Positions 6,242-48,366 of a stretch of 64,000 nucleotides of DNA are shown here, piece after piece. The stretch comes from Myxococcota bacterium (GTDB lineage: Bacteria > Myxococcota_A > UBA796 > GCA-2862545). Made by a program: the position numbers and the translations under genes. The DNA lies in the NCBI GenBank assembly GCA_039208735.1, contig JBCCQY010000011.1:31563-95562 (forward strand), given 5' to 3'. Each line of letters opens with the position of its first letter. Position 1 is the stretch's first letter. A model generated the notes under the pieces. The model had not been told where the DNA came from and ran no database searches. It was given only the letters and a program-made list of their open reading frames with translations.

Positions 6242-7897
6242 ATGGCGAGTCAAACCCGCGTCCAACACATCCAATCCTTCCATCGGCACCCCGATTCGTA
6301 CAAGCATTGGTCGCTCGAGGTCGACGGCGCCACCGCCACATTGGCCCTCGACGTGAAGGAAGATCAGGGCTTGCGTCCTGACGACTACGTTCTCAAGCAG
6401 AACAGCTACGACCTCGGGGTCGACATGGAGCTGGCCGATGCCATCGAACGGCTTCGGTTCGAGCACCCCCAGGTGCGCACGGTCATCATCACGTCCTCAC
6501 AGCCCAAGGTCTTTTGCGCCGGCGCGAACATTCGCATGCTCGCCACGTCGACCCATGGGTTCAAGGTCAACTTCTGCCGCTACACCAACGAAACGCGATG
6601 CGGCCTCGAAGATGCCTCTGCGAATTCCGGATTGCGGAGCATTGCAGCCCTCAACGGAACGGCTGCAGGGGGCGGCTACGAGTTGGCACTGGCCTGCGAC
6701 GAGATCTTCCTCATCGATGACGGCTCCTCCGCCGTGAGCCTGCCCGAAGTGCCCCTGCTGGGCGTTCTTCCCGGCACCGGCGGACTGACCCGCCTCGTTG
6801 ACAAGCGCCGCGTGCGCCGTGACGTGGCCGATCTCTTCTGCACCAAGGCGGAAGGGTTCCGGGCTCGAGATGCCGTGCGGTTCCAGCTCGTCGATGGTGC
6901 GTTCCCCCGCTCCAAGTGGGAAGATGGCATCGCAGGCGAGGCGGCGAAGACCCAAGGATCCGACGACACGATCAAGGGCATTCAACTCACCGAAGTGAAG
7001 AGCGAAGTCTCGGAAGACGGCCACACGCGTACCTATGGGTCCGTGTCATTGACCCTCGACGAGACCCTGCGCACGGCAACCATCACGGTGCGTGCTCCGG
7101 AAGGGCCGGCTCCTTCGATCGAGGACCTGCACGCCCAGGGCGATCAGGCCTGGGTCTTCCGCGCCTACCGCGAACTCGACGACGTGCTGCTGCGGCTGCG
7201 GTTCAACCACGACACCGTAGGCACCATCCTGTTGCGGACCGAAGGTGATGCTGACGCCGTCGTGGCCCATGACGCCACCGTGCTTGACCACCCAGACGAT
7301 TGGTTGGCCCGTGAAATCCGGCTCTTCCAGGCTCGTGTCTTCCGCCGCCTCGACAACACGGCCCGTTCGATGTTCGCCCTTATCGACGAGGGAAGTTGCT
7401 TTGCGGGGTCGCTGTTCGAAATCACGCTGGCGGCTGACCGTTCTTACATGCTCGATGATGAAGACGGAGCCGTGACCATTCGCGTGACGCAAGCGTCTGC
7501 CGGCGCCTACCCGATGTCGACTGGTCTTACGCGATTGCAGGCCCGGTACCAAAACGATGAGGCGTTGGTGAACCGGGCTCTCACGACGGACGGCCCGCTC
7601 GACGCACAGACCGCTCTCGATTTGGGGCTGGTCACGTTGGCGCCTGACGACATTGACTGGGAAGACGAGATCCGCATCGCGGTGGAGGAGCGCGTCAGCC
7701 TTTCGCCCGATGCGTTGACGGGGATGGAGCAGAACTTGCGTTTCGTGGGTCGAGAGACCTGCGACTCGAAGATCTTCGGCCGGCTGTCCGCATGGCAGAA
7801 TTGGATCTTCCAGCGCCCCAACGCGGTTGGTGACGAAGGAGCGCTTACGTTGTACGGCCATCCGACGCGGCCGTCCTTCGACTGGCGACGGACCTGA
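6242..7897 (+). CDS. boxC: 2,3-epoxybenzoyl-CoA dihydrolase
   Basis: Tandem crotonase domains with NSYDLGVDMELADA, KVNFCRYTNETR, LPEVPLLGVLPGTGG and IFGRLSAWQNWIFQRPNAVG. It lies immediately upstream of boxB. Confidence 0.93.
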   Translation: MASQTRVQHIQSFHRHPDSYKHWSLEVDGATATLALDVKEDQGLRPDDYVLKQNSYDLGVDMELADAIERLRFEHPQVRTVIITSSQPKVFCAGANIRMLATSTHGFKVNFCRYTNETRCGLEDASANSGLRSIAALNGTAAGGGYELALACDEIFLIDDGSSAVSLPEVPLLGVLPGTGGLTRLVDKRRVRRDVADLFCTKAEGFRARDAVRFQLVDGAFPRSKWEDGIAGEAAKTQGSDDTIKGIQLTEVKSEVSEDGHTRTYGSVSLTLDETLRTATITVRAPEGPAPSIEDLHAQGDQAWVFRAYRELDDVLLRLRFNHDTVGTILLRTEGDADAVVAHDATVLDHPDDWLAREIRLFQARVFRRLDNTARSMFALIDEGSCFAGSLFEITLAADRSYMLDDEDGAVTIRVTQASAGAYPMSTGLTRLQARYQNDEALVNRALTTDGPLDAQTALDLGLVTLAPDDIDWEDEIRIAVEERVSLSPDALTGMEQNLRFVGRETCDSKIFGRLSAWQNWIFQRPNAVGDEGALTLYGHPTRPSFDWRRT

Positions 7898-7946
7898 CAG
7901 GGGCGATGTCGGTCATGTTACCCTGCCCACTTGCAGGAGACGATTC

Positions 7947-9362
7947 ATGGCCGGCATCGACTATAATGAACGGATTCCGAACAACGTTGGGCTGTCGGAC
8001 AACCGGCGTCTACAGCGGGCACTCGAGAAGTGGCAACCGGCGTACCTCGACTGGTGGCGCCAAATGGGGCCCGAGGGCTGGCAGGAAAAGGACGTTTACC
8101 TGCGTACGGCGGTGAGCGTTGACAAGGGTGGTTGGGCCCATTTCGACTACGTTCAGATGCCCGACTACCGCTGGGGCATTTTCCTCGCCGACGCCGAGCC
8201 CGACCGGACGATCGGATTTGGCGACCACGCGGGACAGCCTGCGTGGCAGGAAGTGCCCGGCGAGTACCGCAACATGCTGCGCCGCATCATCGTCACCCAA
8301 GGCGACACAGAGCCTGCGAGTGTCGAGCAGCAGCGTATTCTCGGGGCCACGGCACCGTCGTTGTACGACCTGCGCAATCTGTTTCAGGTCAACGTGGAGG
8401 AAGGCCGTCACCTGTGGGCCATGGTCTACCTGTTGCACGGCTTCTTTGGCCGTGATGGCCGCGATGAGGCCGAAGAGTTGTTGGCCCGTCGCGCTGGAGA
8501 TGCGGACAAGCCCCGCATCCTCGATGCCTTCAATCAGGAATGTCCCGACTGGTTGACCTTCTTCTGTTTCACCACGTTCACCGACCGTGACGGGAAGTTC
8601 CAGCTCGGTGCCCTGGCAGAGTCCGCGTTCGACCCGCTGTCACGCACGTGCCGCTTCATGCTTACCGAAGAGGCCCATCACCTCTTTGTCGGTCAGACCG
8701 GCGTAGAGCGGGTGCTTCGGCGGGCGGTGCAGCTCGCCAAGGAAAACCCAGGGGTGTCGGTTCGTGATCAGGGCGGCATCCCACTCGAGATCGTCCAGAA
8801 GTTCGTGAACTTCTGGTTCAGCTACAGCCTCGATCTGTTTGGCTCGGAGATCTCTTCAAATGCGGCTGACTTCTTCGCGAGTGGGCTCAAGGGGCGTTGG
8901 CGCGAGAATCAGTACGAAGACCACCTCGTGACCGAGGGACACTACACGATGTCCCAGCTCGAAGGCGGCAAGCTCATCGACGTCGATGTGCCCATGCGGA
9001 ACGCGATGAACGAGGTCCTGCGGGACGAGTATGTGAAGGACTGCGAGAAGGTCCTCGAAAAGTGGAATCGCGCGCTGGTGGCCGAAGGGGAGACCGACTT
9101 CGAAATCACGCTGCCATCGGTTCGTTTCCATCGCCGACAGGGCATCTATGCAGACGCACACTTCGATACCGCGGGCAACCCCATCTCGGCCGAAGCGTTT
9201 GAAGCGAAGCGCGCGTCCTGGCTTCCCACGGACGAAGAACGGGACTACGTCCGTTCGCTGATGGCGCCCTGCTACGAGACGGGAAAGATGGCGAACTGGA
9301 TCGCGGCGCCGCGCAAGGGCATCAACGGGCAGGAACTCAGCTACGAGTACGTCCGGCTCTAA
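7947..9362 (+). CDS. boxB: Benzoyl-CoA 2,3-epoxidase diiron subunit
   Basis: IPNNV, QGDTEPASVEQQ, EEGRHLWAM, TDRDGKFQL and EEAHH (diiron ligands). RBS AGGAG before ATG 7947. Confidence 0.95.
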   Translation: MAGIDYNERIPNNVGLSDNRRLQRALEKWQPAYLDWWRQMGPEGWQEKDVYLRTAVSVDKGGWAHFDYVQMPDYRWGIFLADAEPDRTIGFGDHAGQPAWQEVPGEYRNMLRRIIVTQGDTEPASVEQQRILGATAPSLYDLRNLFQVNVEEGRHLWAMVYLLHGFFGRDGRDEAEELLARRAGDADKPRILDAFNQECPDWLTFFCFTTFTDRDGKFQLGALAESAFDPLSRTCRFMLTEEAHHLFVGQTGVERVLRRAVQLAKENPGVSVRDQGGIPLEIVQKFVNFWFSYSLDLFGSEISSNAADFFASGLKGRWRENQYEDHLVTEGHYTMSQLEGGKLIDVDVPMRNAMNEVLRDEYVKDCEKVLEKWNRALVAEGETDFEITLPSVRFHRRQGIYADAHFDTAGNPISAEAFEAKRASWLPTDEERDYVRSLMAPCYETGKMANWIAAPRKGINGQELSYEYVRL

Positions 9363-11274: not shown

Positions 11275-12282
11275 ATGGCGATCGAGTCTTTCGTTCCCCG
11301 CCAGAAAAAGTCGGAACGACTTTCAGCGGATCAAGAAAAGGAAATGGCTCGGCGGATTCATTCGGCCGAGCGGCGGGCTCGAGAAGCCATCGACGGCATC
11401 GGCTGCGCATCCGAGATCTTGACTCGTAAACCCAAGCGGGCGGAACGGACTCGCGCGGGCATGGTCGATCGACTCGAAGAGGCGGTTTACGAAGTGTGGC
11501 GGCAGTTCCGCAACCACCCTACCCACAAGATGTCCGCGCGTACGGCCAAGCAGGCGTGGGCGGAAGCTGAAGCGGTGCGCTGGGAGCTTGCGATGAGCGG
11601 GCGACGAATTGCGCACGGCGAAGCGCGCAAGCTCGCGGGCCCGTTTATGGACGAGGCCGATCTGGTGCAGGAAGGCTACATCGGCCTGCTGCGCGCGGCG
11701 AAGCGCTTCGATCCTGATCGTGGGATCCGGTTTTCGACCTATGCGCGTTGGTGGGTTCGCGCCCAGATGACGCGAGCCATCGACCACACCGGTCGTCCGG
11801 TCCGTTTGCCGGGGTGTGCGGTCGAACAGACGCGGAACTTGCGTAAGGCGATCAAGCGGTTCGAAGATCTTGGGGCGGATTACACGGTTTCTGATCTCGC
11901 TGACGAAGTGGGCATCGATAAGAAGCGCGCGGAGTTTTTGCTCTCCCAGGGCCAGACCGTCTCTCTCGACCAGCCGGTTGATGATGGTCCCCGTGCGCGG
12001 TCGCTCGAGCACTTCCTCGCCGACGAGACCGCCGCCGACCCCGACGACGAAGCGATTCACGCCCAAGAGATCCGGCGCATGCTGGAGGCGTTCCACAGCG
12101 TCCTCTCCGAGCGCCACCGCTACGTGTTGTCCCGTCGCTACGGCCTCGAAGACAACCAGTTCCGTACGTTGTCGCAAGTGGGCAAGGGCATGAACTTGTC
12201 CCGCGAGCGCGTTCGCCAAATCGAACGGGAGGCGCTGATGCGGCTCCGTGAACAGGCGAATATCCGCGACGCCCAGCGCTGA
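11275..12282 (+). CDS. Alternative sigma-70 family factor (RpoD/RpoS-like, no region 1.1)
   Basis: DLVQEGYIGL, FDPDRGIRFSTYARWWVR, VRLP, SLDQPV and LSRERVRQIEREAL. GGGAG RBS. Confidence 0.92.
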   Translation: MAIESFVPRQKKSERLSADQEKEMARRIHSAERRAREAIDGIGCASEILTRKPKRAERTRAGMVDRLEEAVYEVWRQFRNHPTHKMSARTAKQAWAEAEAVRWELAMSGRRIAHGEARKLAGPFMDEADLVQEGYIGLLRAAKRFDPDRGIRFSTYARWWVRAQMTRAIDHTGRPVRLPGCAVEQTRNLRKAIKRFEDLGADYTVSDLADEVGIDKKRAEFLLSQGQTVSLDQPVDDGPRARSLEHFLADETAADPDDEAIHAQEIRRMLEAFHSVLSERHRYVLSRRYGLEDNQFRTLSQVGKGMNLSRERVRQIEREALMRLREQANIRDAQR

Positions 12283-13289: not shown

Positions 13290-13362
13290 GGGGGATTAGC
13301 TCAGTTGGGAGAGCGCAGCGTTCGCAATGCTGAGGTCAGGGGTTCGACTCCCCTATCCTCCA
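13290..13362 (+). tRNA. tRNA-Ala (anticodon CGC), CCA not encoded
   Basis: Full cloverleaf: GGGGGAT/ATCCTCC acceptor stem with the G3:U70 Ala determinant, D-arm GCTC..GAGC, anticodon arm CAGCG-TTCGCAA-TGCTG, T-arm AGGGG-TTCGACT-CCCCT, discriminator A. Confidence 0.97.
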
Positions 13363-13376
13363 CTGTCTGACACCAC

Positions 13377-14291
13377 GTGATGGTTCGTACCGGTTTCGCC
13401 GACACCAAAGACGGCCTTGATTTGTACTGGCGACACGCTGGTAATGGTGGTCCCCAACCCACTATTGTGTGTTGCAATGGCCTTGGCGTCTCGACGTTCT
13501 TCTTCAAGTACATCGTCGAGCGGTTCGCCCAGACCCACGGTGTGTTGGTGTGGGACTACCGAGGCCACGGTCGTTCTGCGATTCCCGCGGAGCCCATCGA
13601 AGAGGCGGACCTCTCGATCGAGACGTGTGCAGAAGACCTCGATCGCGTACTTGAAGTGGCCGGAGTGGATGGCCCCATCGTACTCGTGGGCCACTCCATG
13701 GGGTGTCAGGTCCTGCTCGAATACACGCATCGGCACCCTGACCGTATCGCAGGCATGATCCTGTTGTTTGGGACACCCGGTCGACCGATCGACACGTTCC
13801 TCAACACATCGTTGTCGCGGCCTGCCTTTACGCTGCTTCGACGCGCGGTATCGTTGGGAGGACCGCGGGCGTCGCGTTGGTTGCGGCCATTGTATGAGTC
13901 ACCGCTGATGGCACCCTTGGCCGCGGTGGTGGGCTTCGTCGACCTCGAGTACATCGCCGACAAAGACCTGAAGGAGTACCTCGATCACCTCGGGCACTTG
14001 GACCCCCGCATCTTCCTGCGGATGGCGACGTTGGCCGGCGAGCATGATGCGGTGCCCTATTTGCCTTCCATCGAAGCCCCTGCGTTGGTCGTGGCGGGAG
14101 GGCGCGATAGCTTCACGCCGCTGTTCCTGTCTGAGAACATGGCGCAGGCGCTTCCCCATTCCGAGTTGATGGTTCTACACGATGCCACGCATGCGGCCAT
14201 CGTCGAGCATCCTCATGCGATCAATGCGCGTATCGCGCTGTTCTTGGAGCGCTCTGCGGCCCCTCATGCCGCAAGCCTGGAGAAGTCTTGA
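13377..14291 (+). CDS. Alpha/beta hydrolase
   Basis: WDYRGHGRS, GHSMG nucleophile elbow, GGRDSFTP (Asp) and ATHAA (His). Confidence 0.9.
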   Translation: MMVRTGFADTKDGLDLYWRHAGNGGPQPTIVCCNGLGVSTFFFKYIVERFAQTHGVLVWDYRGHGRSAIPAEPIEEADLSIETCAEDLDRVLEVAGVDGPIVLVGHSMGCQVLLEYTHRHPDRIAGMILLFGTPGRPIDTFLNTSLSRPAFTLLRRAVSLGGPRASRWLRPLYESPLMAPLAAVVGFVDLEYIADKDLKEYLDHLGHLDPRIFLRMATLAGEHDAVPYLPSIEAPALVVAGGRDSFTPLFLSENMAQALPHSELMVLHDATHAAIVEHPHAINARIALFLERSAAPHAASLEKS

Positions 14292-15022
14292 ACGCAGTGA
14301 TTCTGGGAGCCACGAAGGGCATGGGCCGAGCGTTGGCTCGCCGCATGGCCAGTCGGGGTGACCGGCTTTACCTGCTCGCGAGGGACGTCGACGATGCGAC
14401 CCGCTCCGCAGCAGACCTTCGTGAGCGCGGAGCGCCCGACGTTGGCGTGGGGCCGTGTAACCTCGAAGATCCGGACTCGTTTGCTCCGGCCCTGGCCGAA
14501 GCCTGGGAGGCGCTGGACCGCGTCGATGCCGTGGTCGTCACTGCGGGCCTCTTCGGCACGCAAGAAGCCCTCGAAGAGGACCTCGACCTTGCCCGCCGCG
14601 TGCTGGTGATCAACCACGCTCACACGGTGATCTTCTGCGAGCACGCTCGCCGAAGGTTGCTTGAACAGGGCGGGGGAACGCTGTGTGTGTTCTCATCCGT
14701 GGCTGGTGATCGGGGTCGCAAGCCGGTCGCGCTGTATGGCTCGAGCAAAGCAGGGCTCTCGCACTATCTCGAAAGCCTCGATCACAAATATCGCAGCGAC
14801 GGCCTCGTCACCCTCTGCGTCAAGCCAGGGTTCGTGAAGACCACGATGACGGCGGGTCTCAAACCGCCCCCGTTTGCGGGGGAGCCCGCCGACGTCGCCC
14901 GACGGGTACTCGCCGCGATCGACGGGAAGGCCCCGTTGGTCTATGCGCCATGGATTTGGGGCTGGATCATGTGGGTCATTCGCCTGCTTCCCCGGGCGGT
15001 CATGCGACGCGTCGGGTTTTAG
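14288..15022 (+). CDS. Short-chain dehydrogenase (DprE2-like subfamily)
   Basis: GATKGMG, SSVAGDRGR, YGSSK and VKPGFVKTTMT. Overlaps the stop codon of the upstream gene. Confidence 0.88.
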   Translation: MNAVILGATKGMGRALARRMASRGDRLYLLARDVDDATRSAADLRERGAPDVGVGPCNLEDPDSFAPALAEAWEALDRVDAVVVTAGLFGTQEALEEDLDLARRVLVINHAHTVIFCEHARRRLLEQGGGTLCVFSSVAGDRGRKPVALYGSSKAGLSHYLESLDHKYRSDGLVTLCVKPGFVKTTMTAGLKPPPFAGEPADVARRVLAAIDGKAPLVYAPWIWGWIMWVIRLLPRAVMRRVGF

Positions 15023-15026
15023 GCGC

Positions 15027-15056
15027 TGTCACCTTTTTGGCTTGCCCCGCGACATC
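15027..15056 (+). promoter_or_regulatory. Putative ECF-sigma promoter (autoregulatory)
   Basis: TGTCACC (15027-15033), 16-nt spacer, then CGAC (15050-15053), lying in the 55-bp gap before the ECF gene. Resembles TGTCAC-N16-CGTC/CGAC ECF promoters. Confidence 0.55.
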
Positions 15057-15077
15057 GGTCGAAGGAGGAAGCAAGCC

Positions 15078-16370
15078 ATGTCGCTGAACCCCCAAGTCGA
15101 GGCGGCACGACGAGGTCGACGCGAGGCATTCGAAGGCCTGGTTCGCGCCCACGCCGTGGCCGTCCATGCCGTGGCCCTACGCATCGTCAAGGACCCGGTG
15201 GCCGCAGATGACGTTGTGCAGGAGACCTTTCTCGCCGCATGGCGAGGACTCCCCAAATTGCGCGACGCAGAGCGCTTTTCAGGGTGGGTCCTCGGGATTG
15301 CGCGCCGTCGGGCTCAGGACTTGGCCCGCCGTAGTCGGGACGTGCCCGTTGCCGACATGCAGGTCGCGGAGTCCTCACCGCCACCCGAACAGCGGCTGAT
15401 GTTGGAAGAATCCGCAGGAACGTTGTGGTCGGCCGTCGAGTTGCTCTCACCCGGCCAGCGGGACGCGGTGTTGCTGTACTACCGCGAGGGACGCTCGGTG
15501 GCCGAGGTCGCCGAGCAACTCGAGGTCCCTGAACCCACGGTTCGCAAACGGTTGTCGCGGGCTCGCGCTGATCTCCGGCGCGACGCAGAACTTGTGGCTC
15601 AACGGGCTGCTGTCACCGTCGGGGCCTTGGTGGCCGCGAGCGTGACGCGTCGGGCATGGGCGGTCGGGCTTGGGCTTTCCGCCGCCGTCTGCATGATGCT
15701 GGGAGTCGGCGTGGCCCAGACCGTGCAGGGGGTAGCCGAGTCGTTGCCGCCAAGTACTCCTCCGAACGGTCCCACTGTCGTGGAGGGGCAGGTACCGCAA
15801 GGTACGCCGCCCGCCAGCACCCGCGGACGAGCCCACATCGAAGCCGCGTTGCTCGCGGCGGAAGATGCGCGGTTCTATGAACACGGCGGGGTGGACGGCC
15901 GTGCGATCTTGAGGGCAACGTTCCACAACCTGACTTCGGATCGTGGGATGCAAGGCGGAAGTACGCTCACGCAACAGCTCGCAAAGCAACGCCTCCAAGG
16001 CCGGACGGCCTCGCGCCTCGAGGGCAAGATCGCGGAGACGTTGTACGCCTGGAAGTTGGAGACAGACCTGGACAAAGCGACGATCCTGGACCGCTACCTA
16101 AGCGAGGTGTGGTTCGGCGGAACCACGCGAGGCATCGACGCTGCAGCGGCGGACTTTTTCCACACGACGCCCGAGGCCTTAAGCGTGGGTCAAGCCGCGA
16201 TGCTGGCCGCACTGCCTGCGGGCCCTGCTGCCTACAACCCCCGGACTGCGCCGGTCGCCGCCCGGGCGCGTCGGGCTTGGGTGCTCGCACAAATGGTGGA
16301 CCGGGGTTGGCTCGATCCTTCTGAGGCCGCTCGCGCCAACGCCGAACCCCTCACCGCAGATTCGGACTGA
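15078..16370 (+). CDS. ECF sigma factor fused via a TM helix to a peptidoglycan glycosyltransferase (GT51) domain
   Basis: AAGGAGG RBS. Sigma2: DDVVQETFLAAW...FSGWVLGIARR. Sigma4: LSPGQRDAVLLYYREG...TVRKRLSRAR. Hydrophobic helix, then GT51 motifs EDARFYEHGG, GGSTLTQQLAK, KIAE, KATILDRYL and QAAMLAAL, all in one frame. Confidence 0.88.
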   Translation: MSLNPQVEAARRGRREAFEGLVRAHAVAVHAVALRIVKDPVAADDVVQETFLAAWRGLPKLRDAERFSGWVLGIARRRAQDLARRSRDVPVADMQVAESSPPPEQRLMLEESAGTLWSAVELLSPGQRDAVLLYYREGRSVAEVAEQLEVPEPTVRKRLSRARADLRRDAELVAQRAAVTVGALVAASVTRRAWAVGLGLSAAVCMMLGVGVAQTVQGVAESLPPSTPPNGPTVVEGQVPQGTPPASTRGRAHIEAALLAAEDARFYEHGGVDGRAILRATFHNLTSDRGMQGGSTLTQQLAKQRLQGRTASRLEGKIAETLYAWKLETDLDKATILDRYLSEVWFGGTTRGIDAAAADFFHTTPEALSVGQAAMLAALPAGPAAYNPRTAPVAARARRAWVLAQMVDRGWLDPSEAARANAEPLTADSD

Positions 16371-16378
16371 GCCGTTGG

Positions 16379-17422
16379 TCAACGCGACGGATCGATCTGC
16401 AGCGTGTAGCTCGGAGGTGGCTTTGCACGGCTGCGGACGGCGATCAAGACAGGCCCCGGACCCGTAACTGCCACCACCGCGCGCCTGCCTCGGCGAACCA
16501 CGGACGGTTGCTCTGCTTGCCGGACTTCAACCTCGAGGCGCCCGCGGGCATCTGGGTGGCGTTCGATCACCACCCGATGTGGCCCTGGCGCCAATTCTGG
16601 AAGTCGCACGTGGTCCACGCCGCCCTGCAGGGTGCCGCGGTACCGGATGCCGCGCTCCACAATGGCGGCGCGTTCCGGTTCGTCGTTGGGCTCGACCACA
16701 AAGGCGCCAGGGGACTCCTCGACGGCGAAACGGTAGCGTGGCGCCCCAAACACCGGTCGTAGCAGCACGGTCATGGGCTCCCCGGCCAGGACCCCGATGG
16801 TTTTGGTCACCTGCCCGTCCACGAGCATCGGGGGCAGGGCCTCGCCCCCACGCCACATTGCGGTGAACCATGCCGCGCCACCCTCCAGTTCGAGACCGAG
16901 GGACAGATGGCCCGTGTCAGGGCCGGGAATGACCACGAACGCATCGTCGTCGCTAAGCTCCCCCTGAACGAGGACCCCCGTGGGAAGGATGTGCCCGGCT
17001 TCGGGAGGGTTGGGCTCGAGTTCCCAGCGTTCGGTGCCCCATTCCACGGCGAGTCGGTAGGGCACGTGCTCTCGCCCCCCTTGGCGCGTGAGGACGAAGC
17101 CGTAGCGCTTTCCAGGGTGTACTCCAAGCGTTCGAGCTTCGCGCAGATCGTCGGCGCGAGCTTCGTCAACGATGCGCCCGCCCTGCCACACTTGAGCCAG
17201 GAGCGCGGTGGCATCGTGGTCAAAGTCCACCGTGTAGGTCAAGCGGTGAGCCCCCGGGGGAATGCGCATGGCGTAGCGATGAACATCGCCGATGCCTTCG
17301 AGGGTCGCCACGGCGGGGGCGTCAGGCCGAATCAGGCGCGCCGACGAGCGGAGGGGAGGAGGATGGTCGGGAGGCGGCGGAGGCTCGGCACACGCCACGA
17401 GCAGGGAGAGCCAGGTCATCAC
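16379..17422 (-). CDS. Lipoprotein with PPC-like (pre-peptidase C-terminal) beta-domains
   Basis: Lipobox LVAC, repeated ELEPN / VEPND motifs and 'YTLQI'-type domain ends. Confidence 0.65.
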   Translation of the reverse strand: MMTWLSLLVACAEPPPPPDHPPPLRSSARLIRPDAPAVATLEGIGDVHRYAMRIPPGAHRLTYTVDFDHDATALLAQVWQGGRIVDEARADDLREARTLGVHPGKRYGFVLTRQGGREHVPYRLAVEWGTERWELEPNPPEAGHILPTGVLVQGELSDDDAFVVIPGPDTGHLSLGLELEGGAAWFTAMWRGGEALPPMLVDGQVTKTIGVLAGEPMTVLLRPVFGAPRYRFAVEESPGAFVVEPNDEPERAAIVERGIRYRGTLQGGVDHVRLPELAPGPHRVVIERHPDARGRLEVEVRQAEQPSVVRRGRRAVVAVTGPGPVLIAVRSRAKPPPSYTLQIDPSR

Positions 17423-17435
17423 GCCGCCACCGTAC

Positions 17436-18950
17436 TCATTTGTCGGGCAGCTTGAGTCCCTTCAGGAGGTCTCCGAACGTGCCAAAGCTGCTGGACTTGG
17501 CCTGAGACTGGTGTTGCCGCCAACCACGGTCCGCTTCGGAGGGATCGTCGAGGAGCGAGACGGTGACGCGAGACCCGTCTTCCCGCAGGATGCGGGCGGT
17601 GACCTCTCGGCCACGTCGAAAGCGCTGCGCAAGGACCGTTCCAGGGGGCAAGGCCACTTCTCCAGAGGGAAGGAAGGCCTGACGACCATCGCCCAACTGC
17701 AGAACCACGCCCGCAGGGTTGACCTCGACGACGGTACCCGTCACCTCGGCCCCCACCGGGACGACTTCCGCATCCCCAAGGACTGGCGCCAACGACAGAC
17801 GCCGCCGATCGTGATCCACCTCGAGCAAGCGCACCTGAAGCGTGTCACCCTTTTTGTAGGTACTTCCAGCGAGACGGGAGATGTGGGCCAAGCCCTCGAG
17901 ACCCGGGGCCAGCTCCACAAACACGCCAAACTCCATCGTGTTCGTGACCGTGCCCGGGTACACCCCTCCGCCCATGAATTCGGTTCCCACGGCACTCCAG
18001 GGGTCGTCCTCGAGGGCCTTCGCGGACAGGGTGAGCTTGCGGGCCACCGCATCGACATTCAGCACGATGACCTCGACCGCCTGGCCCGGCTTCACGACCT
18101 GGCGCGGATCGTCGATGCGACCCCAGCCGATCTCGGACTTTGGCACAAGGCCATCCACGCCTCCGATGTCGACAAAGAAGCCGAAGGGCTGCACCGACGT
18201 CACGAGGCCACGATGGCTCTGTCCCTCTTCGAGGGTTGGCCACAGTGCGCGAGCCTTCTCTTCGGCTTCCTTCTCTTGCAAGGCGCGTCGGGACAACACG
18301 ACGCGGTCGCCGGTCTCAAGCACCTCAAACTGGAGCACCTGGCCGATGTAGCCATCCGGGTCCACGCCCTGACGACGCGACATCTGCGAAGCGGGTACGA
18401 AGGCGCGAACCGGGCCCACGCGCACGGTAAACCCACCCTTGTTCCGCGACTCGACCTTTCCTTCCACCGGAAGGCCGGCCGCTTGCGCGTCTGCGAGGTG
18501 TTCCGCCGCGGCGGCTCCCGTGAGCTTGCTCGTGAGCAAGACGAGCCCATCGTCGGCGCGCACCACAAACGCGGTGATCTCGTCGCCTGCCTTGGCGTCC
18601 GGATCGGGAAGGTCGCCCCGTTCGAGCTGCCCCTCGGACTTGCCCCCCAGATCGATGAACGCTGTGTCCCGTCCGATGCGCGTGATTTTGCCCGTCACTT
18701 TGGTGCCGGGCTCGAGGGAGACCCGTTGGCTTGAGCCATCCATCAAGGCGGCCAGCTCGTCGGGGTTCATCGATGCGAGAAGCTCGAGATCCGACAGATC
18801 GAGCTTTCCACCCTCCACTTCGCCGGTAGCAGGTCCATCGTCCACCGGCGATGCAGCCGGCGTCTCGACCGGCGTCTCTGGTTCGGGCTTGCGCTCTGGG
18901 CGACGGGGTTGACCGGCGGGCACGCGGCGCGGCGGTTTCGGATTGGCCAT
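17436..18950 (-). CDS. Ribosomal protein S1-like multi-S1-domain protein (probable paralog)
   Basis: About five S1 repeats (FIDLGGKSEG, RAFVPASQ, FGFFVDIGGVDGLV, FGVFVELAPGLEGLAHIS) and a C-terminal FGTFGDLL. Confidence 0.85.
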   Translation of the reverse strand: MANPKPPRRVPAGQPRRPERKPEPETPVETPAASPVDDGPATGEVEGGKLDLSDLELLASMNPDELAALMDGSSQRVSLEPGTKVTGKITRIGRDTAFIDLGGKSEGQLERGDLPDPDAKAGDEITAFVVRADDGLVLLTSKLTGAAAAEHLADAQAAGLPVEGKVESRNKGGFTVRVGPVRAFVPASQMSRRQGVDPDGYIGQVLQFEVLETGDRVVLSRRALQEKEAEEKARALWPTLEEGQSHRGLVTSVQPFGFFVDIGGVDGLVPKSEIGWGRIDDPRQVVKPGQAVEVIVLNVDAVARKLTLSAKALEDDPWSAVGTEFMGGGVYPGTVTNTMEFGVFVELAPGLEGLAHISRLAGSTYKKGDTLQVRLLEVDHDRRRLSLAPVLGDAEVVPVGAEVTGTVVEVNPAGVVLQLGDGRQAFLPSGEVALPPGTVLAQRFRRGREVTARILREDGSRVTVSLLDDPSEADRGWRQHQSQAKSSSFGTFGDLLKGLKLPDK

Positions 18951-18962
18951 GGGTTCCTCGGT

Positions 18963-21099
<2,137 letters not shown>

Positions 21100-21241
21100 G
21101 GTCTTCCGAATGGGAGTTAAGGCGGCTCCCTGACCGCATAGCGGTCTCCGCTGGGCGTGAAATTCGCGCCGACGGCTTGACCCTTTGGCTGGGGTGATTC
21201 CCCTTAGCCGAACCGTAGACTGCGACGACTGCGAGGCGAGG

Positions 21242-21526
21242 GTGGAAGCAATCCTCTCAAATCCCCTGTTCCCCTTATTGATCGGAATTGGGATCTTCTA
21301 TTTTCTGGTGATCCGACCGGCCAACCAGGAACGGGAGGCCAAGGAGAAGCTCCTGGCCTCGCTAGCCAAGGATGACAAAGTCGTGACGGCCGCAGGTCTG
21401 TGGGGCACTGTGGTGAGCGTGTCCGACCACACGGTCGAACTTCAGATCGCCGACAAGGCGCGTGTGACCGTCGACAAAAGTAGCGTGGCACGTCGCCAGG
21501 GCGAGCCCGAGAAGCCCACGTCGTAG
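21242..21526 (+). CDS. yajC: Preprotein translocase subunit YajC
   Basis: N-terminal TM FYFLVIRP and LAKDDKVVTAAGLWG. Upstream of secD. Confidence 0.92.
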   Translation: MEAILSNPLFPLLIGIGIFYFLVIRPANQEREAKEKLLASLAKDDKVVTAAGLWGTVVSVSDHTVELQIADKARVTVDKSSVARRQGEPEKPTS

Positions 21527-21535
21527 GGAGACGAA

Positions 21536-23962
21536 GTGGAAAGCATGAACTGGCTTCGACTGGGCGCCATCGCGGCCCTGGTGCTGGGTTCCATCTACGT
21601 TCTATTGCCCGCCGCATTGGTGGACGACACGGATGCTCGAGTTGAGAGCTTCCAGAACGAAGTTGGCCAGCCAGAGAGCACGAAGCGACTGCCATTGACG
21701 GTGACCGCAGGCGATGCTGCGGAGGTCATCGCGGCCATCCAGACGCGTCTCGGCGTCGCCTCCGTCGACGTGGCGTCGATCGAGGCGGACGGTGATGAGG
21801 GTCTGGTCATCGACCTAGGGGATGCCTCGTTCGACACCGTTTCGGGGTTGCTCGGCAAGCCTGGCGCGGCCGTGGTCGTCGCATTGGACGACCTTTCGGT
21901 CGACGAACAGGACGATGACAGCGTTTCCGACGCGGTCAAGGAGGCGGTGGAGGCAGCAGGGCTTCCGGTGGATGCGACGTCCAAGAAGCTCGGTGCCGTC
22001 GTGCGAGCCGTGGCTCTCGACGACCTTGCACTTGCGGAACTCCAGAGTCGAGCCGTCATGGGGTTGCAGCAAGCGGAGGCCGAGGACGGCAAGCCCGCGT
22101 CGCTCGTGGCGGTTCTCGCGCCCAGCGACGACGAAGCGACGGCGAAGGCCCGCGTGCTGCTCATCAATGGCAAGCCCGCGGGCCTCGTGCTTGAAGAGGA
22201 TGCGGTGGTGCCGTTGACCGATGCGGTCCGCCCTGACTTGGCGAAGTTGGTTTCGCTGGCAGGTACGGTCTCGCCGAAACGCAGCAAGACCGTCAAGACC
22301 GAAGCCGTCGAAGATGACTCGCTTGAGAATGTTCCGCCTTGGCTTGCGGCCATCCTCCCCGACACCCAGGTCAACCTGGGCCTTGACCTGCAGGGAGGCA
22401 TCGACCTCACGTTGCAGGTCGAACTCGATGCGGCGGTCCTCAACCAGGCCAAGCGCGACACCCAGGGCCTTGTGGAGAAGGCCAAAGAGGATGACCTGAT
22501 CCTCGATTCGGTGACTCGAATGTTCGGTGAGCCCACCCTCGAGGTGGTTTCCGACGCTGAACTCGGCAAGATCACCACCTTCATGCGGAACCAGCTCGGG
22601 GCCCAGAACTACCAGTACGTCGAGTCCGACGGCACGACCCACCGCTATGAGATGACCGACGAACGGCGCGCCGAGGTCGAAGAGCAGTCGATGAACCAGG
22701 TGCTCGAAACGCTGCGGAAGCGGATCGACGCCACCGGCGTCAAGGAGCCTGCCATCGTCCGCAAAGGCAGCGGCCGCATCAATGTGCAGCTGCCAGGCCT
22801 CGAAGACCCCAAGGTAGCCCTCGACGTCATCGGTCAGGCTGCGGTCCTCGAATTCCATATGGTCGACATGGAGTTTGACGACGCTCTGCTCGAAGAGGTC
22901 CTCGACAGTGCTCAGGACCAGCTTCCCCAAAGCGAGTTCTTCGACGACGAGCTGCTGAACAAGTGGCTACACGACACGGGGCGCCTCGACCGCGACCGCA
23001 TCGTGTTGTGGAGCGAGCCCGGCAACGAAGAACAATGGGCCGGTGCGGTCGACATTTGGCCGCGTGAACTCAACAACGATGGGGTTCTTGAAGCAGCCCC
23101 CATGGTCCTCTTCGATAAGATCGAGTTGACCGGCAACGACATCAACGATGCTGGGGTCGGATTTGACCAGAACAACCAGGCCGGCGTTTCCATCGACTTC
23201 AAGCCGCGCGGCGGACAGGTCTTCTGCGACCTCACCAAGGATGCGGTAGGTCAGCGGTTCGCCATTGTGCTTGACCGCATCATCATGAGCGCGCCGAGCA
23301 TTCGGGAGCGCATCTGCGGCGGGTCGGCTCGGATCGACATGAATGCTTCCGTCGATCCCCTCTCGGAGTCCAAGGCGTTGGCGCTGGTGCTACGCACGGG
23401 GGCCCTCGACGCACCGGTGGTGGTAGCCAGTGTCAGTCAGGTCGGAGCCTCGCTAGGGGCCGACGCGATTCGGGCCGGGGCGACGGGAGCCGTCGTCGGG
23501 GTGCTCATCGTGCTGCTCTTCATGGCCCTGTGGTACCGGACGGCGGGACTCATCGCGGATTTCGCCATCGTCGTGAACATTTTGCTCGTCCTCGCGGCCC
23601 TCGCGAGCTTCGGCGCGACGCTCACGCTCCCCGGTATTGCTGGTATTGCCTTGACCGTTGGTATGGCGGTCGACGCCAACATCATCATCTACGAGCGAGT
23701 CCGCGAGGAGCTACGGCTCGGCGTACAGCCTCGCAAGGCGGTGGATGTGGGCTTCGAAAAGGCGGTGGTGGCGGTTCTTGACGCCAACATCACCACGGCC
23801 ATCGCCGGTATCGTCCTGTACTCGTACGGCACGGGGCCCATCAAGGGCTTCGCCGTCACCCTGCTCATTGGGATCGGCACCACCCTGGTGACCGCTCTCT
23901 TCGTCACCCGAACGATCATGGAGCTCGTCACGCGCAGCTCCACGGCCCGTCTGCGGATCTGA
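21536..23962 (+). CDS. secD: Protein translocase subunit SecD (extended N-terminal periplasmic region)
   Basis: LGLDLQGG, LTLPGIAGIALTVGMAVDANIIIYERVREE, DANITT and GPIKGFAVTL. Confidence 0.96.
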   Translation: MESMNWLRLGAIAALVLGSIYVLLPAALVDDTDARVESFQNEVGQPESTKRLPLTVTAGDAAEVIAAIQTRLGVASVDVASIEADGDEGLVIDLGDASFDTVSGLLGKPGAAVVVALDDLSVDEQDDDSVSDAVKEAVEAAGLPVDATSKKLGAVVRAVALDDLALAELQSRAVMGLQQAEAEDGKPASLVAVLAPSDDEATAKARVLLINGKPAGLVLEEDAVVPLTDAVRPDLAKLVSLAGTVSPKRSKTVKTEAVEDDSLENVPPWLAAILPDTQVNLGLDLQGGIDLTLQVELDAAVLNQAKRDTQGLVEKAKEDDLILDSVTRMFGEPTLEVVSDAELGKITTFMRNQLGAQNYQYVESDGTTHRYEMTDERRAEVEEQSMNQVLETLRKRIDATGVKEPAIVRKGSGRINVQLPGLEDPKVALDVIGQAAVLEFHMVDMEFDDALLEEVLDSAQDQLPQSEFFDDELLNKWLHDTGRLDRDRIVLWSEPGNEEQWAGAVDIWPRELNNDGVLEAAPMVLFDKIELTGNDINDAGVGFDQNNQAGVSIDFKPRGGQVFCDLTKDAVGQRFAIVLDRIIMSAPSIRERICGGSARIDMNASVDPLSESKALALVLRTGALDAPVVVASVSQVGASLGADAIRAGATGAVVGVLIVLLFMALWYRTAGLIADFAIVVNILLVLAALASFGATLTLPGIAGIALTVGMAVDANIIIYERVREELRLGVQPRKAVDVGFEKAVVAVLDANITTAIAGIVLYSYGTGPIKGFAVTLLIGIGTTLVTALFVTRTIMELVTRSSTARLRI

Positions 23963-23969
23963 GGCGAAC

Positions 23970-25223
23970 ATGTTCGAAGAGATCAAACGGCGACTCGACG
24001 GGTTCGAATTCGACTTCGTCTCGTTGCGGAATCGACTGGGCGCCGCGAGTGCCATCTTGGTGGCTCTGTCGTGGGTGTTGTTCGCGGCGATTGGCCCGAA
24101 TTGGGGCATCGACTTTACAGGCGGCACCCAGATCCAGCTGAAGTTTGCAGAGCCCATTGAGATCGGCGAGATGCGTCGCGCGCTGACGACGATCGGGGTG
24201 GCTGGCGACTCCATTCAGTCGGTCAACGGCGAGGATTCGGGCGAGTTTATCGTGCGGATCCAAGACCCTCGCTTTGGGATGGAGGGTCTGGAGGACGACG
24301 TCCGCAACGCTCTCGAATCGACCTTCGGCAACGACTTCGTCGATGGCGAGATCCAGTCGAGCGTCGAGGTCTCGGCGCGCTTCGTGGTGAATTACAACGG
24401 CGAGCCTCGACCGTTCCAGGAGTTGGGCAAGGAACTCGAAGGAGCGCTGCCCCAGCTGTCCGCGGTGGGACCGGGGAGCGACGAGAATCAGATCGTCCTC
24501 ACCGTGGGAGGGATTGATCAGCGCATTAAGGCGCGAATCAAGGAGGCCATCAATCAGCCGTTCGAGGTGACCGAGTTGTCGGCGGTGGGGCCCAAGGTGG
24601 GCGGTGAACTCCGTCGCCAGGGCTTCATCTCGATTGCCGCGACCTTGGCCCTGGTGCTGCTGTACGTGGCCTTCAGGTTCGACGTGGGCTTTGCCCCAGG
24701 AGCGGTGGTGGCGTTGTTCCACGACGTGTCACTGACCGTCGGGGTCTTCGTCGCCCTGCAGCTCGAATTCAACCTGCCCATGATCGGCGCCCTGCTCACC
24801 ATTGTCGGGTACTCGCTCAACGACACGATCGTCATTTACGACCGCATTCGCGAGAATCGCGAGCGTCACCGACGAACCGACCTGCCCGGCCTCATCAACG
24901 TCTCCATTAGCGAGACGTTGACGCGAACCGTCGCAACGTCGCTCACCACGATGCTCGCCATCATCGCCTTCCTCGCCATCGGCGGCCCGGTCATCCGGAA
25001 CTTCGCGTTCGCCATGCTGCTCGGCATCGTCTTTGGTACCTACTCGACGATCTTCGTGGCATCGCCCATGATTCTTGTCATGGAGCGGGTCAAGCCCTAC
25101 CTCCAGCAGCTCATCGCGATCAACGAAGAAGAAGAGGACGATGACGGCGGTCCGCCCATGACCGAAAGCGAGAAGCGTCGCCGGGCCCGCGAAGAGGCCG
25201 AGCGCCCCGATGCTCCGGCTTAG
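23970..25223 (+). CDS. secF: Protein translocase subunit SecF
   Basis: GIDFTGG, VGPKVG, HDV, GYSLNDTIVIYDRIREN and GTYSTIFVA. Confidence 0.96.
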   Translation: MFEEIKRRLDGFEFDFVSLRNRLGAASAILVALSWVLFAAIGPNWGIDFTGGTQIQLKFAEPIEIGEMRRALTTIGVAGDSIQSVNGEDSGEFIVRIQDPRFGMEGLEDDVRNALESTFGNDFVDGEIQSSVEVSARFVVNYNGEPRPFQELGKELEGALPQLSAVGPGSDENQIVLTVGGIDQRIKARIKEAINQPFEVTELSAVGPKVGGELRRQGFISIAATLALVLLYVAFRFDVGFAPGAVVALFHDVSLTVGVFVALQLEFNLPMIGALLTIVGYSLNDTIVIYDRIRENRERHRRTDLPGLINVSISETLTRTVATSLTTMLAIIAFLAIGGPVIRNFAFAMLLGIVFGTYSTIFVASPMILVMERVKPYLQQLIAINEEEEDDDGGPPMTESEKRRRAREEAERPDAPA

Positions 25224-47652: not shown

Positions 47653-48366
47653 ATGGCAACCACAAAGCAGAAGCGGACGCGCAACAACGTCGTGCTGCGT
47701 CACTACGCTCTCGTGCAGCGCATCGCACGCCAGATCCACAGCCGCCTTCCACAGAGCGTGGAACTGGATGACCTCATCAGTGTTGGAGTGGTCGGCCTCA
47801 TCGAAAGCATCGCCCGGTACAACCCCTCTCGGGGCGTGCCGTTCGATACCTACGCCCGTCATCGGATCCGCGGCGCAATTCTGGACGCGCTCCGTGCGGT
47901 CGATTGGGTTCCTCACTCGGTCCGCCGCAAAGCGCAGGCCATTGAGCACACGCGTCGGACCCTGCGGACGGTGCACGGCCGGACCCCGACGGATCGCGAA
48001 ATGGCGGAACGCTTGGGCATCGAACTGTCGGACTACCGTAACCTGGTTCGCGACTCGGAGATCCGTCAGTTGCTGAGCCTCGATGCGCCAGCGGCCAACG
48101 ACAACCCGACGCCGCTTGTCGAACAGGTGGCCGGCGAAGTCGACCTCGAGAACTCCACGGGGGAGAACGAGCTGCGTACCCTTGTGATGACCGCGGTGAC
48201 GAAGCTTCCCGAGCGGGAAGCCACCGCGATCACGCTCTACTACTTCCATGAGCTGCCGCTAAAGGAAGTGGGCAAGCACCTGGGCGTCACGGAGTCCCGC
48301 GCGTGCCAGCTGTGTGGGCAGGGCGTCAAACGACTCCGTCGCAAGCTCGGCCACCTGCCGGCCTAG
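47653..48366 (+). CDS. fliA: FliA/WhiG-family (sigma-28) RNA polymerase sigma factor
   Basis: RLPQSVELDDLISVGVVGL, FDTYARHRIRGAILDALRAVDWVPHSVR, LPEREATAITLYYFHEL and GVTESRACQL. Confidence 0.9.
   Translation: MATTKQKRTRNNVVLRHYALVQRIARQIHSRLPQSVELDDLISVGVVGLIESIARYNPSRGVPFDTYARHRIRGAILDALRAVDWVPHSVRRKAQAIEHTRRTLRTVHGRTPTDREMAERLGIELSDYRNLVRDSEIRQLLSLDAPAANDNPTPLVEQVAGEVDLENSTGENELRTLVMTAVTKLPEREATAITLYYFHELPLKEVGKHLGVTESRACQLCGQGVKRLRRKLGHLPA

Follow-up and report, generated by a model that had tools for sequence, protein, structure and literature searches.

How could a transcription factor and a cell-wall enzyme domain work together when they are made as one chain? The question is raised by a single gene in a 64,000-nt stretch of DNA from a Myxococcota bacterium (hereafter the window; contig JBCCQY010000011.1 of assembly GCA_039208735.1, or C11 of the window genome, G000, in our numbering), in which an earlier sequence-only reading had proposed a cell-wall sensor. 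The encoded protein (P0001) combines a sigma factor of the extracytoplasmic function (ECF) type with a GT51 peptidoglycan glycosyltransferase domain. The answer that we favor, with somewhat better than even confidence, is that it would act as a one-protein, membrane-tethered ECF sensor, the GT51 domain serving as receptor and the sigma factor being released by proteolysis.

The open frame on the + strand spans 14874–16370, and the ATG at 15078 is a credible start because AAGGAGG precedes it at 15062–15068 (Table 1); the start given by the sequence-only reading, 15027, takes in promoter rather than coding sequence. Its account of the frame otherwise holds: open reading frame, Pfam and hydropathy agree on an uninterrupted protein of about 430 residues with sigma2, sigma4, a hydrophobic helix, a Pro-rich linker and GT51, the three Pfam models that it had suggested running (Sigma70_r2, Sigma70_r4_2 and Transgly) all match within this one frame, and the motifs EDARFYEHGG, GGSTLTQQLAK, GKIAE and YLS are all present in the translation. 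By Pfam the protein has sigma2 and sigma4 without sigma3, as defines an ECF sigma factor, and it scores 99.8 bits against TIGR02937 (cut-off 42.9). The Transgly match covers residues 253–406 (E 6e-48) and begins at profile position 25 of 178, the Pro-rich linker standing in place of the N-terminal part. As had been claimed, no transpeptidase domain is matched by Pfam, and the C-terminus falls at the point where a class A penicillin-binding protein (PBP) runs on into its transpeptidase; scores lie far under the NCBIfam cut-offs for both PBP1A (182 of 509) and MtgA (104 of 183).

An AlphaFold2 model built from an alignment of 16 sequences (mean predicted local distance difference test, pLDDT, 79.5; predicted template modeling score 0.50) matches the GT51 structures 3nb6, 3d3h and 2oqo of Aquifex PBP1A as well as ECF sigma structures. 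The GT51 fold and motifs I, II, III and V are present, with pLDDT below 50 at linker residues 231–249 and low at a short apolar segment, H1, that follows sigma4. A search of the ESM Atlas returned one sigma cluster at 0.75, plus ordinary PBP clusters. The sequence shows sigma2 and sigma4 connected, via one membrane helix (H2) and then a flexible linker, with GT51, a domain taken from a class A PBP and truncated ahead of the transpeptidase.

The fusion is a real, conserved architecture and not a misassembly, given other full-length fusions at 39–50% identity and a contig that bridges the junction. The sequence-only reading had named recurrence in other genomes and an intact junction at 15580–15840 as the checks that matter here. 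Among 8000 scored candidates, 15 other full-length fusions carry the same four Pfam domains (421–494 residues, 39–50% best-segment identity); four further full-length members and several partial ones came from a profile search over 1.84 billion representatives, and one more full-length fusion lies in genome G432, bringing the family (family A) to 21 full-length proteins including the query, 20 of them further to it. Across the junction, one contig of sequencing run X3, which comes from another study than the possible source run X1, spans 15432–15940 with 33 substitutions and no gap (X2 and X5, two runs of small share, match parts of the stretch only). Differences between X3 and the window at residues 257–408 fall at the third codon position in 7 of 7 cases, and at residues 226–253 in 7 of 15 (among the 40 of 103 rows of differences listed). 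Averaged over pairs in alignment A1, identity reaches 0.66 in sigma4 and 0.56 in both sigma2 and GT51, but 0.30 in the transmembrane (TM) helix and 0.25 in the linker. Since its listed changes are all third-position, and since GT51 is as conserved as sigma2 while the linker drifts, there are signs of purifying selection on the domain in family A.

An artefact, or a neutral fusion in decay, could be argued from the source, a metagenome-assembled genome (MAG) with 6.15% contamination, from the patchy distribution (6 of the 49 genomes of the family) and from a few garbled or cut copies (P0148, L115 and P0154). Set against 21 full-length copies at about 40–50% identity, the bridging contig, a conserved promoter, a second origin and the signs of purifying selection, that explanation is largely refuted and keeps scarcely any probability. 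Two further proteins, P0150 and P0156, have two Transgly domains each and look like chimeric assemblies.

Family A is narrowly distributed. In the 182 genomes of the class, at E 1e-78, full-length fusions were found in G000, G418, G419, G429 and G432; the fusion in G431 is cut by a contig end, and the match in G422 is a paralogue matched in its sigma part only. All fusion matches fall within the GTDB family of the window genome, none being found at that threshold in the 133 class genomes of other families. A 401-genome sample of the phylum gave no other genome better than E 1e-70, the matches listed covering only one half of the protein. A homology scan of genome contigs yielded one fusion among the best 80 loci, the rest running to ordinary PBPs, and a fusion-specific DNA pattern, which does match L032, found no stretch in metagenome contigs. 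The labeled source MAGs are assigned by NCBI to Myxococcota, Myxococcales, Deltaproteobacteria and Alphaproteobacteria, labels from which the lineage of family A is probably Myxococcota-related. In a quick tree of 87 rows, the family A GT51 domains form one clade (Shimodaira–Hasegawa-like approximate likelihood-ratio test, SH-aLRT, 99).

Whether this domain is still an enzyme was addressed by a residue audit of 23 family A rows against 332 control GT51 domains, which were found by similarity to the fusions and so lean towards them. The catalytic Glu is kept in all 23 rows, as is Tyr of motif IV, and Glu of motif III in 21 (the window protein has G in place of R316 in this motif). The motif IV Asn occurs in none of the 23, compared with 305 of the 332 controls, and at position 381, where most controls have Lys, Gln or Arg, Ala or Ser stands in 22 of the 23 rows. 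The 22 rows whose ends could be measured stop 10–33 residues past motif V, with no transpeptidase following. Mutagenesis of E. coli PBP1b reportedly showed that both glutamates are essential and that the Asn of motif IV is important.

These residues bear on a competing explanation, in which GT51 remains active as a monofunctional polymerase and itself constitutes the output: autoregulation would supply additional glycosyltransferase for repair, or a means of soaking up moenomycin or lipid II, and catalytic engagement would double as the signal. Its catalytic Glu and its motifs I and II are intact throughout; the absence throughout family A of the motif IV Asn, and the near-complete absence of Lys/Gln/Arg at position 381, speak the other way, as do the missing N-terminal part of the domain and the eight other GT51 genes of the window genome, given which the fusion is not needed as a polymerase. 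We consider an active polymerase unlikely, while recognizing that it overlaps with the receptor reading, as signaling would be open to a domain of weak activity too.

A second family of sigma–GT51 fusions (family B) adds to this comparison. It comprises eight proteins (P0151 and P0285–P0291; 456–520 residues) with the same order of sigma2, sigma4, TM helix, linker and GT51. Their sigma part is of a different ECF type and forms a separate clade (SH-aLRT 100 in the sigma tree, where a long-branch warning applies), and their GT51 domain nests among PBP1A sequences in the 87-row quick tree, the nearest labeled sequence being from Polyangia; on these two grounds the fusion of sigma factor and GT51 arose twice independently, both times in uncultured bacteria, as far as sequences and trees tell. 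In family B the catalytic Glu is replaced by Gln in 7 of 8 proteins (Glu in 332 of 332 controls) and the motif III Glu by Gln in 8 of 8 (Glu in 327 of 332 controls), a loss of both glutamates that again sits poorly with the polymerase explanation. The equivalent mutant of S. aureus MGT, E100Q, has been crystallized with moenomycin bound (PMC6053601). Convergence, lost catalytic residues and a kept cleft together form the strongest argument for a sigma-fused GT51 domain as a receptor, and suggest that it is one.

No member of family B was found in the 401-genome phylum sample; among 401 genomes from the class to which G505 belongs, one had it, the first look there being stricter; and none was evident among the best 80 loci of a metagenome scan, which ran to ordinary PBPs. 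The gene located in G884 is preceded by a HAD-like gene and by an ABC transporter, with transposase and integrase remnants nearby (labels assigned by eye), and has a possible AAC...TGTCT promoter upstream, a single example.

The receptor reading places the two halves of the protein on opposite sides of the membrane. H2 has a mean Kyte–Doolittle hydropathy of 2.07 (residues 195–213) and is favored over H1 for membrane insertion in 15 of 16 proteins on an approximate insertion scale; it is followed by LP-x-I, resembling the N-in anchor of PBP1A. H1 is an uncharged run of 12–19 residues in 22 of 24 family A proteins and is shortened in the subclade of the window protein. In 22 of 24 members the stretch ahead of H2 has more net positive charge than the stretch behind it, a positive-inside bias which predicts one membrane helix with sigma inside and GT51 outside, in line with the sequence-only reading; we infer that the sigma part would be cytoplasmic and the GT51 cleft would lie at the outer face of the inner membrane. 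A complex prediction between the sigma part (residues 1–176) and H1 segment (residues 177–212) of P0006, made with alignment A4, scored 0.09 and 0.14, against a mark of 0.32.

Directly after sigma4 the clade has a signal-peptide-like segment (a basic stretch, an apolar run, a Pro and A-x-A), which is kept whatever module follows. One might therefore take H1 and A-x-A for an internal signal peptide that splits sigma from GT51, constitutively or on a signal, or else suppose an inverted topology with GT51 in the cytoplasm. The basic stretch, the apolar run of 12–19 residues, the frequent Pro and the A-x-A with variable middle recur in nearly all clade members, and signal peptidase is reported to cut the anti-sigma factor RsiP (PMC8844934). 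The charge bias around H2 would, however, place A-x-A on the cytoplasmic side, and both the PBP1A-like anchor and the shortening of H1 in the window subclade are further points against such an arrangement, which we regard as improbable.

The sigma factor itself belongs to a clade in which the same sigma part and H1 carry different modules: multi-TM extensions of ECF263-like kind, TM helices with a YhfC protease domain, or a single TM helix with unknown domains. Module types are intermixed within one group of the sigma tree (SH-aLRT 93), where family A needs four changes, none forced by strong branches. Since the same clade has different modules in the same position, the C-terminal slot behaves, to judge by the sequences, as an exchangeable input. 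The nearest non-GT relatives found (P0126–P0137, P0140 and P0141; 372–383 residues, multi-TM) group with family A (SH-aLRT 93). The window genome has a paralogue with a YhfC domain (Table 1), with relatives in P0152, P0237, P0269, L130 and L134; it would be a sigma factor carrying its own membrane protease, and the name YhfC does not occur in the available text of the ECF supplement (PMC7826278). Such paralogues, with an enzyme domain in the extension, are a point in favor of the polymerase explanation. Other ECFs in or near the clade have long extensions (P0153, P0155, P0179, P0188, P0260, L136, G000:C106:1815–3341 and G000:C2:11084–12580); in the ones looked at, a single TM helix and a Pro-rich linker lead to outer domains for which Pfam gives nothing informative.

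What the sigma factor might transcribe is indicated by a motif, GTCACC and CGAC separated by 15 or 16 nt with a T-tract opening the spacer, which precedes all five full-length fusion genes that have upstream DNA; on this ground autoregulation of the fusion gene is likely. The motif also stands before nine other clade genes, of which some have an altered –10. In its strict form the pattern has a single match each in G418, G419, G429 and G432, every time at the fusion gene, and none in G431, its reversed control matching once across the five genomes. Relaxed and combined with a ribosome-binding site, it matches 17 times in 12 of the 49 family genomes (reversed control, 0): at 11 clade ECF genes (10 already known, and a new one in G038), at two other genes and at four places off gene starts. 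Within G418:C438:57–136, an 18-bp tandem repeat holds the relaxed pattern four times. A scan for sigma-70 promoters and terminators gave nothing above chance. That the only strict match per genome is the fusion gene itself would also suit a polymerase serving as its own output, for which ECF41, with a regulon that is essentially its own locus, offers a precedent (PMC7826278).

Beyond the fusion gene, two candidate targets encode envelope proteins. In G419 the motif and a ribosome-binding site precede a gene for a GDPD-family lipoprotein, and in G431 the ATG of its orthologue (61% identical) overlaps the stop codon of the fusion, as in translational coupling; with two different kinds of link in two genomes, this lipoprotein is a real lead to a regulon. 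For the other, a CPBP membrane protease gene in G432, a search of the remaining 48 family genomes at E 1e-20 found no orthologue. None of the three GDPD and seven CPBP-like genes of the window genome has the GTCAC motif.

In the mechanism that we favor, the GT51 cleft would bind lipid II, lipid-linked nascent glycan or a moenomycin-type mimic, the domain being mainly a receptor whose polymerase activity is reduced or incidental. A change in occupancy would expose the linker to a site-1 cut, followed by an RseP-type cut within the Ala/Gly-rich helix, both steps by analogy with the sigma factors IutY and ECF52; the freed sigma would then transcribe from GTCAC(C/G)-N15/16-CG(A/T)C promoters. One output would be its own gene, in positive feedback; the others would be very few envelope genes, differing from genome to genome, for example those for the GDPD lipoprotein or the CPBP membrane protease. 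The window genome encodes an RseP-like M50 protease. Moenomycin acts on M. xanthus through inhibited PBP1a2 (PMC10475089); as it acts on a myxobacterium, a ligand of this type is plausible for the lineage. The sensor proposed by the sequence-only reading gains support from the conserved promoter, the module-swapping ECF clade and the second fusion with its Glu-to-Gln replacements.

Sensing might also proceed without proteolysis, the sigma factor working while tethered, as membrane-bound transcription activators do, or being switched in conformation via H1. The loci share no protease gene beside the fusion, H1 is kept throughout the clade, and multi-TM relatives less obviously fit two-step cutting. 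The Ala/Gly-rich H2 of the fusion, on the other hand, presumably resembles site-2 protease substrates. Some ECF extensions do act by conformational change, but in IutY, the characterized sigma fusion of single-TM type, release is carried out by Prc and RseP (PMC8999054), and we hold a mechanism without cleavage to be quite unlikely.

Several observations weigh against the receptor reading. The motif I and II residues Asp, Phe, His, Ser, Thr and Gln are invariant in 23 of 23 family A rows, as in an active enzyme; 27 of the 332 controls also lack the motif IV Asn, as do three of the seven other GT51 domains of the window genome, and its loss is no proof of inactivity. Family B bears on family A by convergence only. 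The topology call combines hydropathy and charge and does not come from a trained predictor. The promoter pattern was derived from the same sites that it finds, and paralogous ECFs share it, making cross-regulation possible. In the window genome, no target besides the fusion gene itself was found in an upstream scan with a home-made gene caller (43 sense and 46 antisense matches), nor did a weight-matrix regulon search show enrichment there, its top matches lying in coding DNA. The GDPD orthologue was found in only two of the six fusion genomes, the window genome not among them, and also in two genomes where no fusion was found.

A bolder extension concerns that lipoprotein. Moenomycin contains a sugar-phosphate-glycerate phosphodiester. 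GT51, a domain known until now as polymerase and drug target, would have been recruited as a receptor on two independent occasions, the family B domain being a pseudoenzyme and the family A domain a partly degenerate one; both would read occupancy of the lipid II/moenomycin cleft directly, and in some genomes would induce a phosphodiester-cutting GDPD lipoprotein, in a sense-and-destroy circuit. This combined reading we think doubtful. That the lipoprotein cuts moenomycin is speculation, no such report being among the matches listed in a literature search, and no circuit of this kind is described in the literature searched.

Among known systems, ECF263 is similar in having an ECF with a membrane-bound C-terminal extension (PMC7826278), and the nearest non-GT relatives found have a multi-TM extension of about the size described for it (their ECF263-like character being judged by size and TM content only). 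Three described features differ: the extension there has five or seven TM helices, here one plus GT51; a DUF2007 gene lies at –1 there, here a short-chain dehydrogenase/reductase (SDR) gene in the window and various genes elsewhere, among those read by eye; and the promoter there is TGCAC(A/C)...CGTC, related to but not the same as GTCAC(C/G)...CG(A/T)C. We therefore do not file the fusion in ECF263, a placement by described features rather than by a group hidden Markov model score. The motif of the fusion is closer to the promoter of ECF41 (TGTCACA/CGTC), a group whose regulon is very small (PMC7826278), and ECF57 has TM-containing extensions; unlike these groups, the fusion has no SnoaL or WD40 domain and no conserved Cys pair, and is not from Planctomycetes.

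Similar in layout are IutY (ECF243) and SCO4117 (ECF52), in which sigma factor, TM helix and outer domain form one chain without a separate anti-sigma factor, SCO4117 also having a Pro-rich region ahead of its outer domain; proteolytic release has been shown for IutY and proposed for ECF52 (PMC8999054). The fusion differs in that Pfam detects no FecR-type or zinc-finger anti-sigma domain, only the 30-residue H1 segment being present, and in that it carries a cell-wall enzyme domain on the outside where a signaling or carbohydrate-binding module would otherwise stand. In the PbpP–RsiP–sigmaP system of Bacillus thuringiensis (PMC8092216), a PBP-derived domain likewise senses a wall-directed drug and controls an ECF, through three proteins and a beta-lactam-binding domain where here there is one protein and a glycosyltransferase domain. 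With PBP1A and MtgA/SgtB the fusion shares the GT51 fold, motifs I–V and a membrane anchor; it differs by its sigma factor, the lack of a transpeptidase and the lost motif IV Asn. Lipocone domains, too, occur in sensor positions (PMC12419801).

The sequence-only reading knew of no described sigma–GT51 fusion, and none appears in the searchable text of the ECF classification. The accessible main text of the ECF reclassification (bioRxiv 10.1101/2019.12.11.873521) has no occurrence of transglycosylase or glycosyltransferase, and the available text of its supplement (PMC7826278) uses such terms for neighboring genes only, though tables beyond that text may bear on the point. Full-text literature searches, whose scope took in few subscription papers, likewise returned no report of such a fusion. 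The architecture is thus apparently undescribed, a variant of the one-component ECF with GT51 in the sensor slot.

Around the fusion gene, the window holds an SDR gene ending at 15022 and a convergent open reading frame downstream. The neighborhood is not conserved among the six loci examined, none of which has an anti-sigma gene next to the fusion; its absence from the window, remarked on in the sequence-only reading, is thereby extended to all six. Upstream, 13290–15022 (+) encodes tRNA-Ala, an alpha/beta hydrolase and the SDR, which is related to DprE2/PRK07102; a relative in run X3 likewise has the SDR and then the same GTCACCTTT motif. Elsewhere in the window, 6242–9362 (+) contains two genes that we take to be like boxC and boxB of benzoyl-CoA epoxidation, the second with only a weak PaaA_PaaC Pfam match. 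Two further sigma factors are a sigma70-type protein with regions 2 and 4 by Pfam (11275–12282, +) and a FliA-like one identified by eye (47653–48366, +). A housekeeping block at 17436–25223 starts with an S1-repeat protein (Pfam), followed by tgt, queA, yajC, secD and secF (by eye).

Table 1. Features of the fusion locus and of related loci; plain coordinates are window positions, and those with a prefix belong to the locus or contig named.
Feature	Location	Strand	Basis
Candidate autoregulatory ECF promoter: –35 GTCACC (15028–15033), 16-nt T-tract spacer, –10 CGAC (15050–15053)	15028–15053	+	Motif conservation
Ribosome-binding site AAGGAGG	15062–15068	+	Sequence; 10 nt before ATG
ECF sigma–TM–GT51 fusion gene, 430 residues (P0001)	15078–16370	+	Open reading frame, translation, Pfam, homologues
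Sigma region 2, residues 21–87	15138–15338	+	PF04542 Sigma70_r2, E 5e-17
Sigma region 4, residues 116–166, clade motif RKRLSRAR	15423–15575	+	PF08281 Sigma70_r4_2, E 2e-15
Short apolar helix H1, residues 178–191, then A-x-A, residues 193–195	15609–15662	+	Uncharged run, whole ECF clade
Transmembrane helix H2, residues 195–213, predicted N-in/C-out	15660–15716	+	Hydropathy, charge bias
Pro-rich linker, residues 214–250, variable in length and sequence	15717–15827	+	Identity 0.25, low pLDDT
GT51 peptidoglycan glycosyltransferase domain, residues 253 to about 425	15834–16352	+	PF00912, 2oqo E 1e-33, fold
Catalytic Glu262, motif I, kept	15861–15863	+	23/23 family A rows
Ser342 at motif IV Asn position (YxN)	16101–16103	+	Asn in 0/23 family A rows, 305/332 controls
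346-residue open reading frame, lipoprotein-like N-terminus	16379–17419	–	No Pfam or NCBIfam match; convergent on fusion
Paralogous ECF with several TM helices and YhfC domain (PF10086, E 1e-15)	L031:6473–8284 = G000:C5:112469–114283	–	Same –35 motif
GDPD-family lipoprotein gene, G419	L250:1546–2448	+	Clade promoter
GDPD-family lipoprotein gene, G431	L125:846–1739	+	Coupling to fusion gene
Rce1-like (CPBP) membrane protease gene, G432	L231:1543–2139	+	Clade promoter and ribosome-binding site
Family B gene, G884	L279:1501–3045	–	Located in genome search

How Gram-negative bacteria sense the state of glycan polymerization, or lipid II, at the membrane's outer face is poorly understood, and the known ECF wall sensors use anti-sigma factors or a separate PBP. 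If the receptor reading is right, the fusion would offer a portable reporter, encoded by one gene and with a defined 26-bp promoter, of lipid II flux and of inhibitors of glycosyltransferases, and family B would be a natural GT51 pseudoenzyme; were the sense-and-destroy circuit also true, a GDPD-fold lipoprotein would cut the phosphodiester in phosphoglycolipid (moenomycin-type) antibiotics or in lipid-linked wall intermediates. In the clade at large, one ECF scaffold swaps its membrane module among GT51, a YhfC protease and unknown domains.

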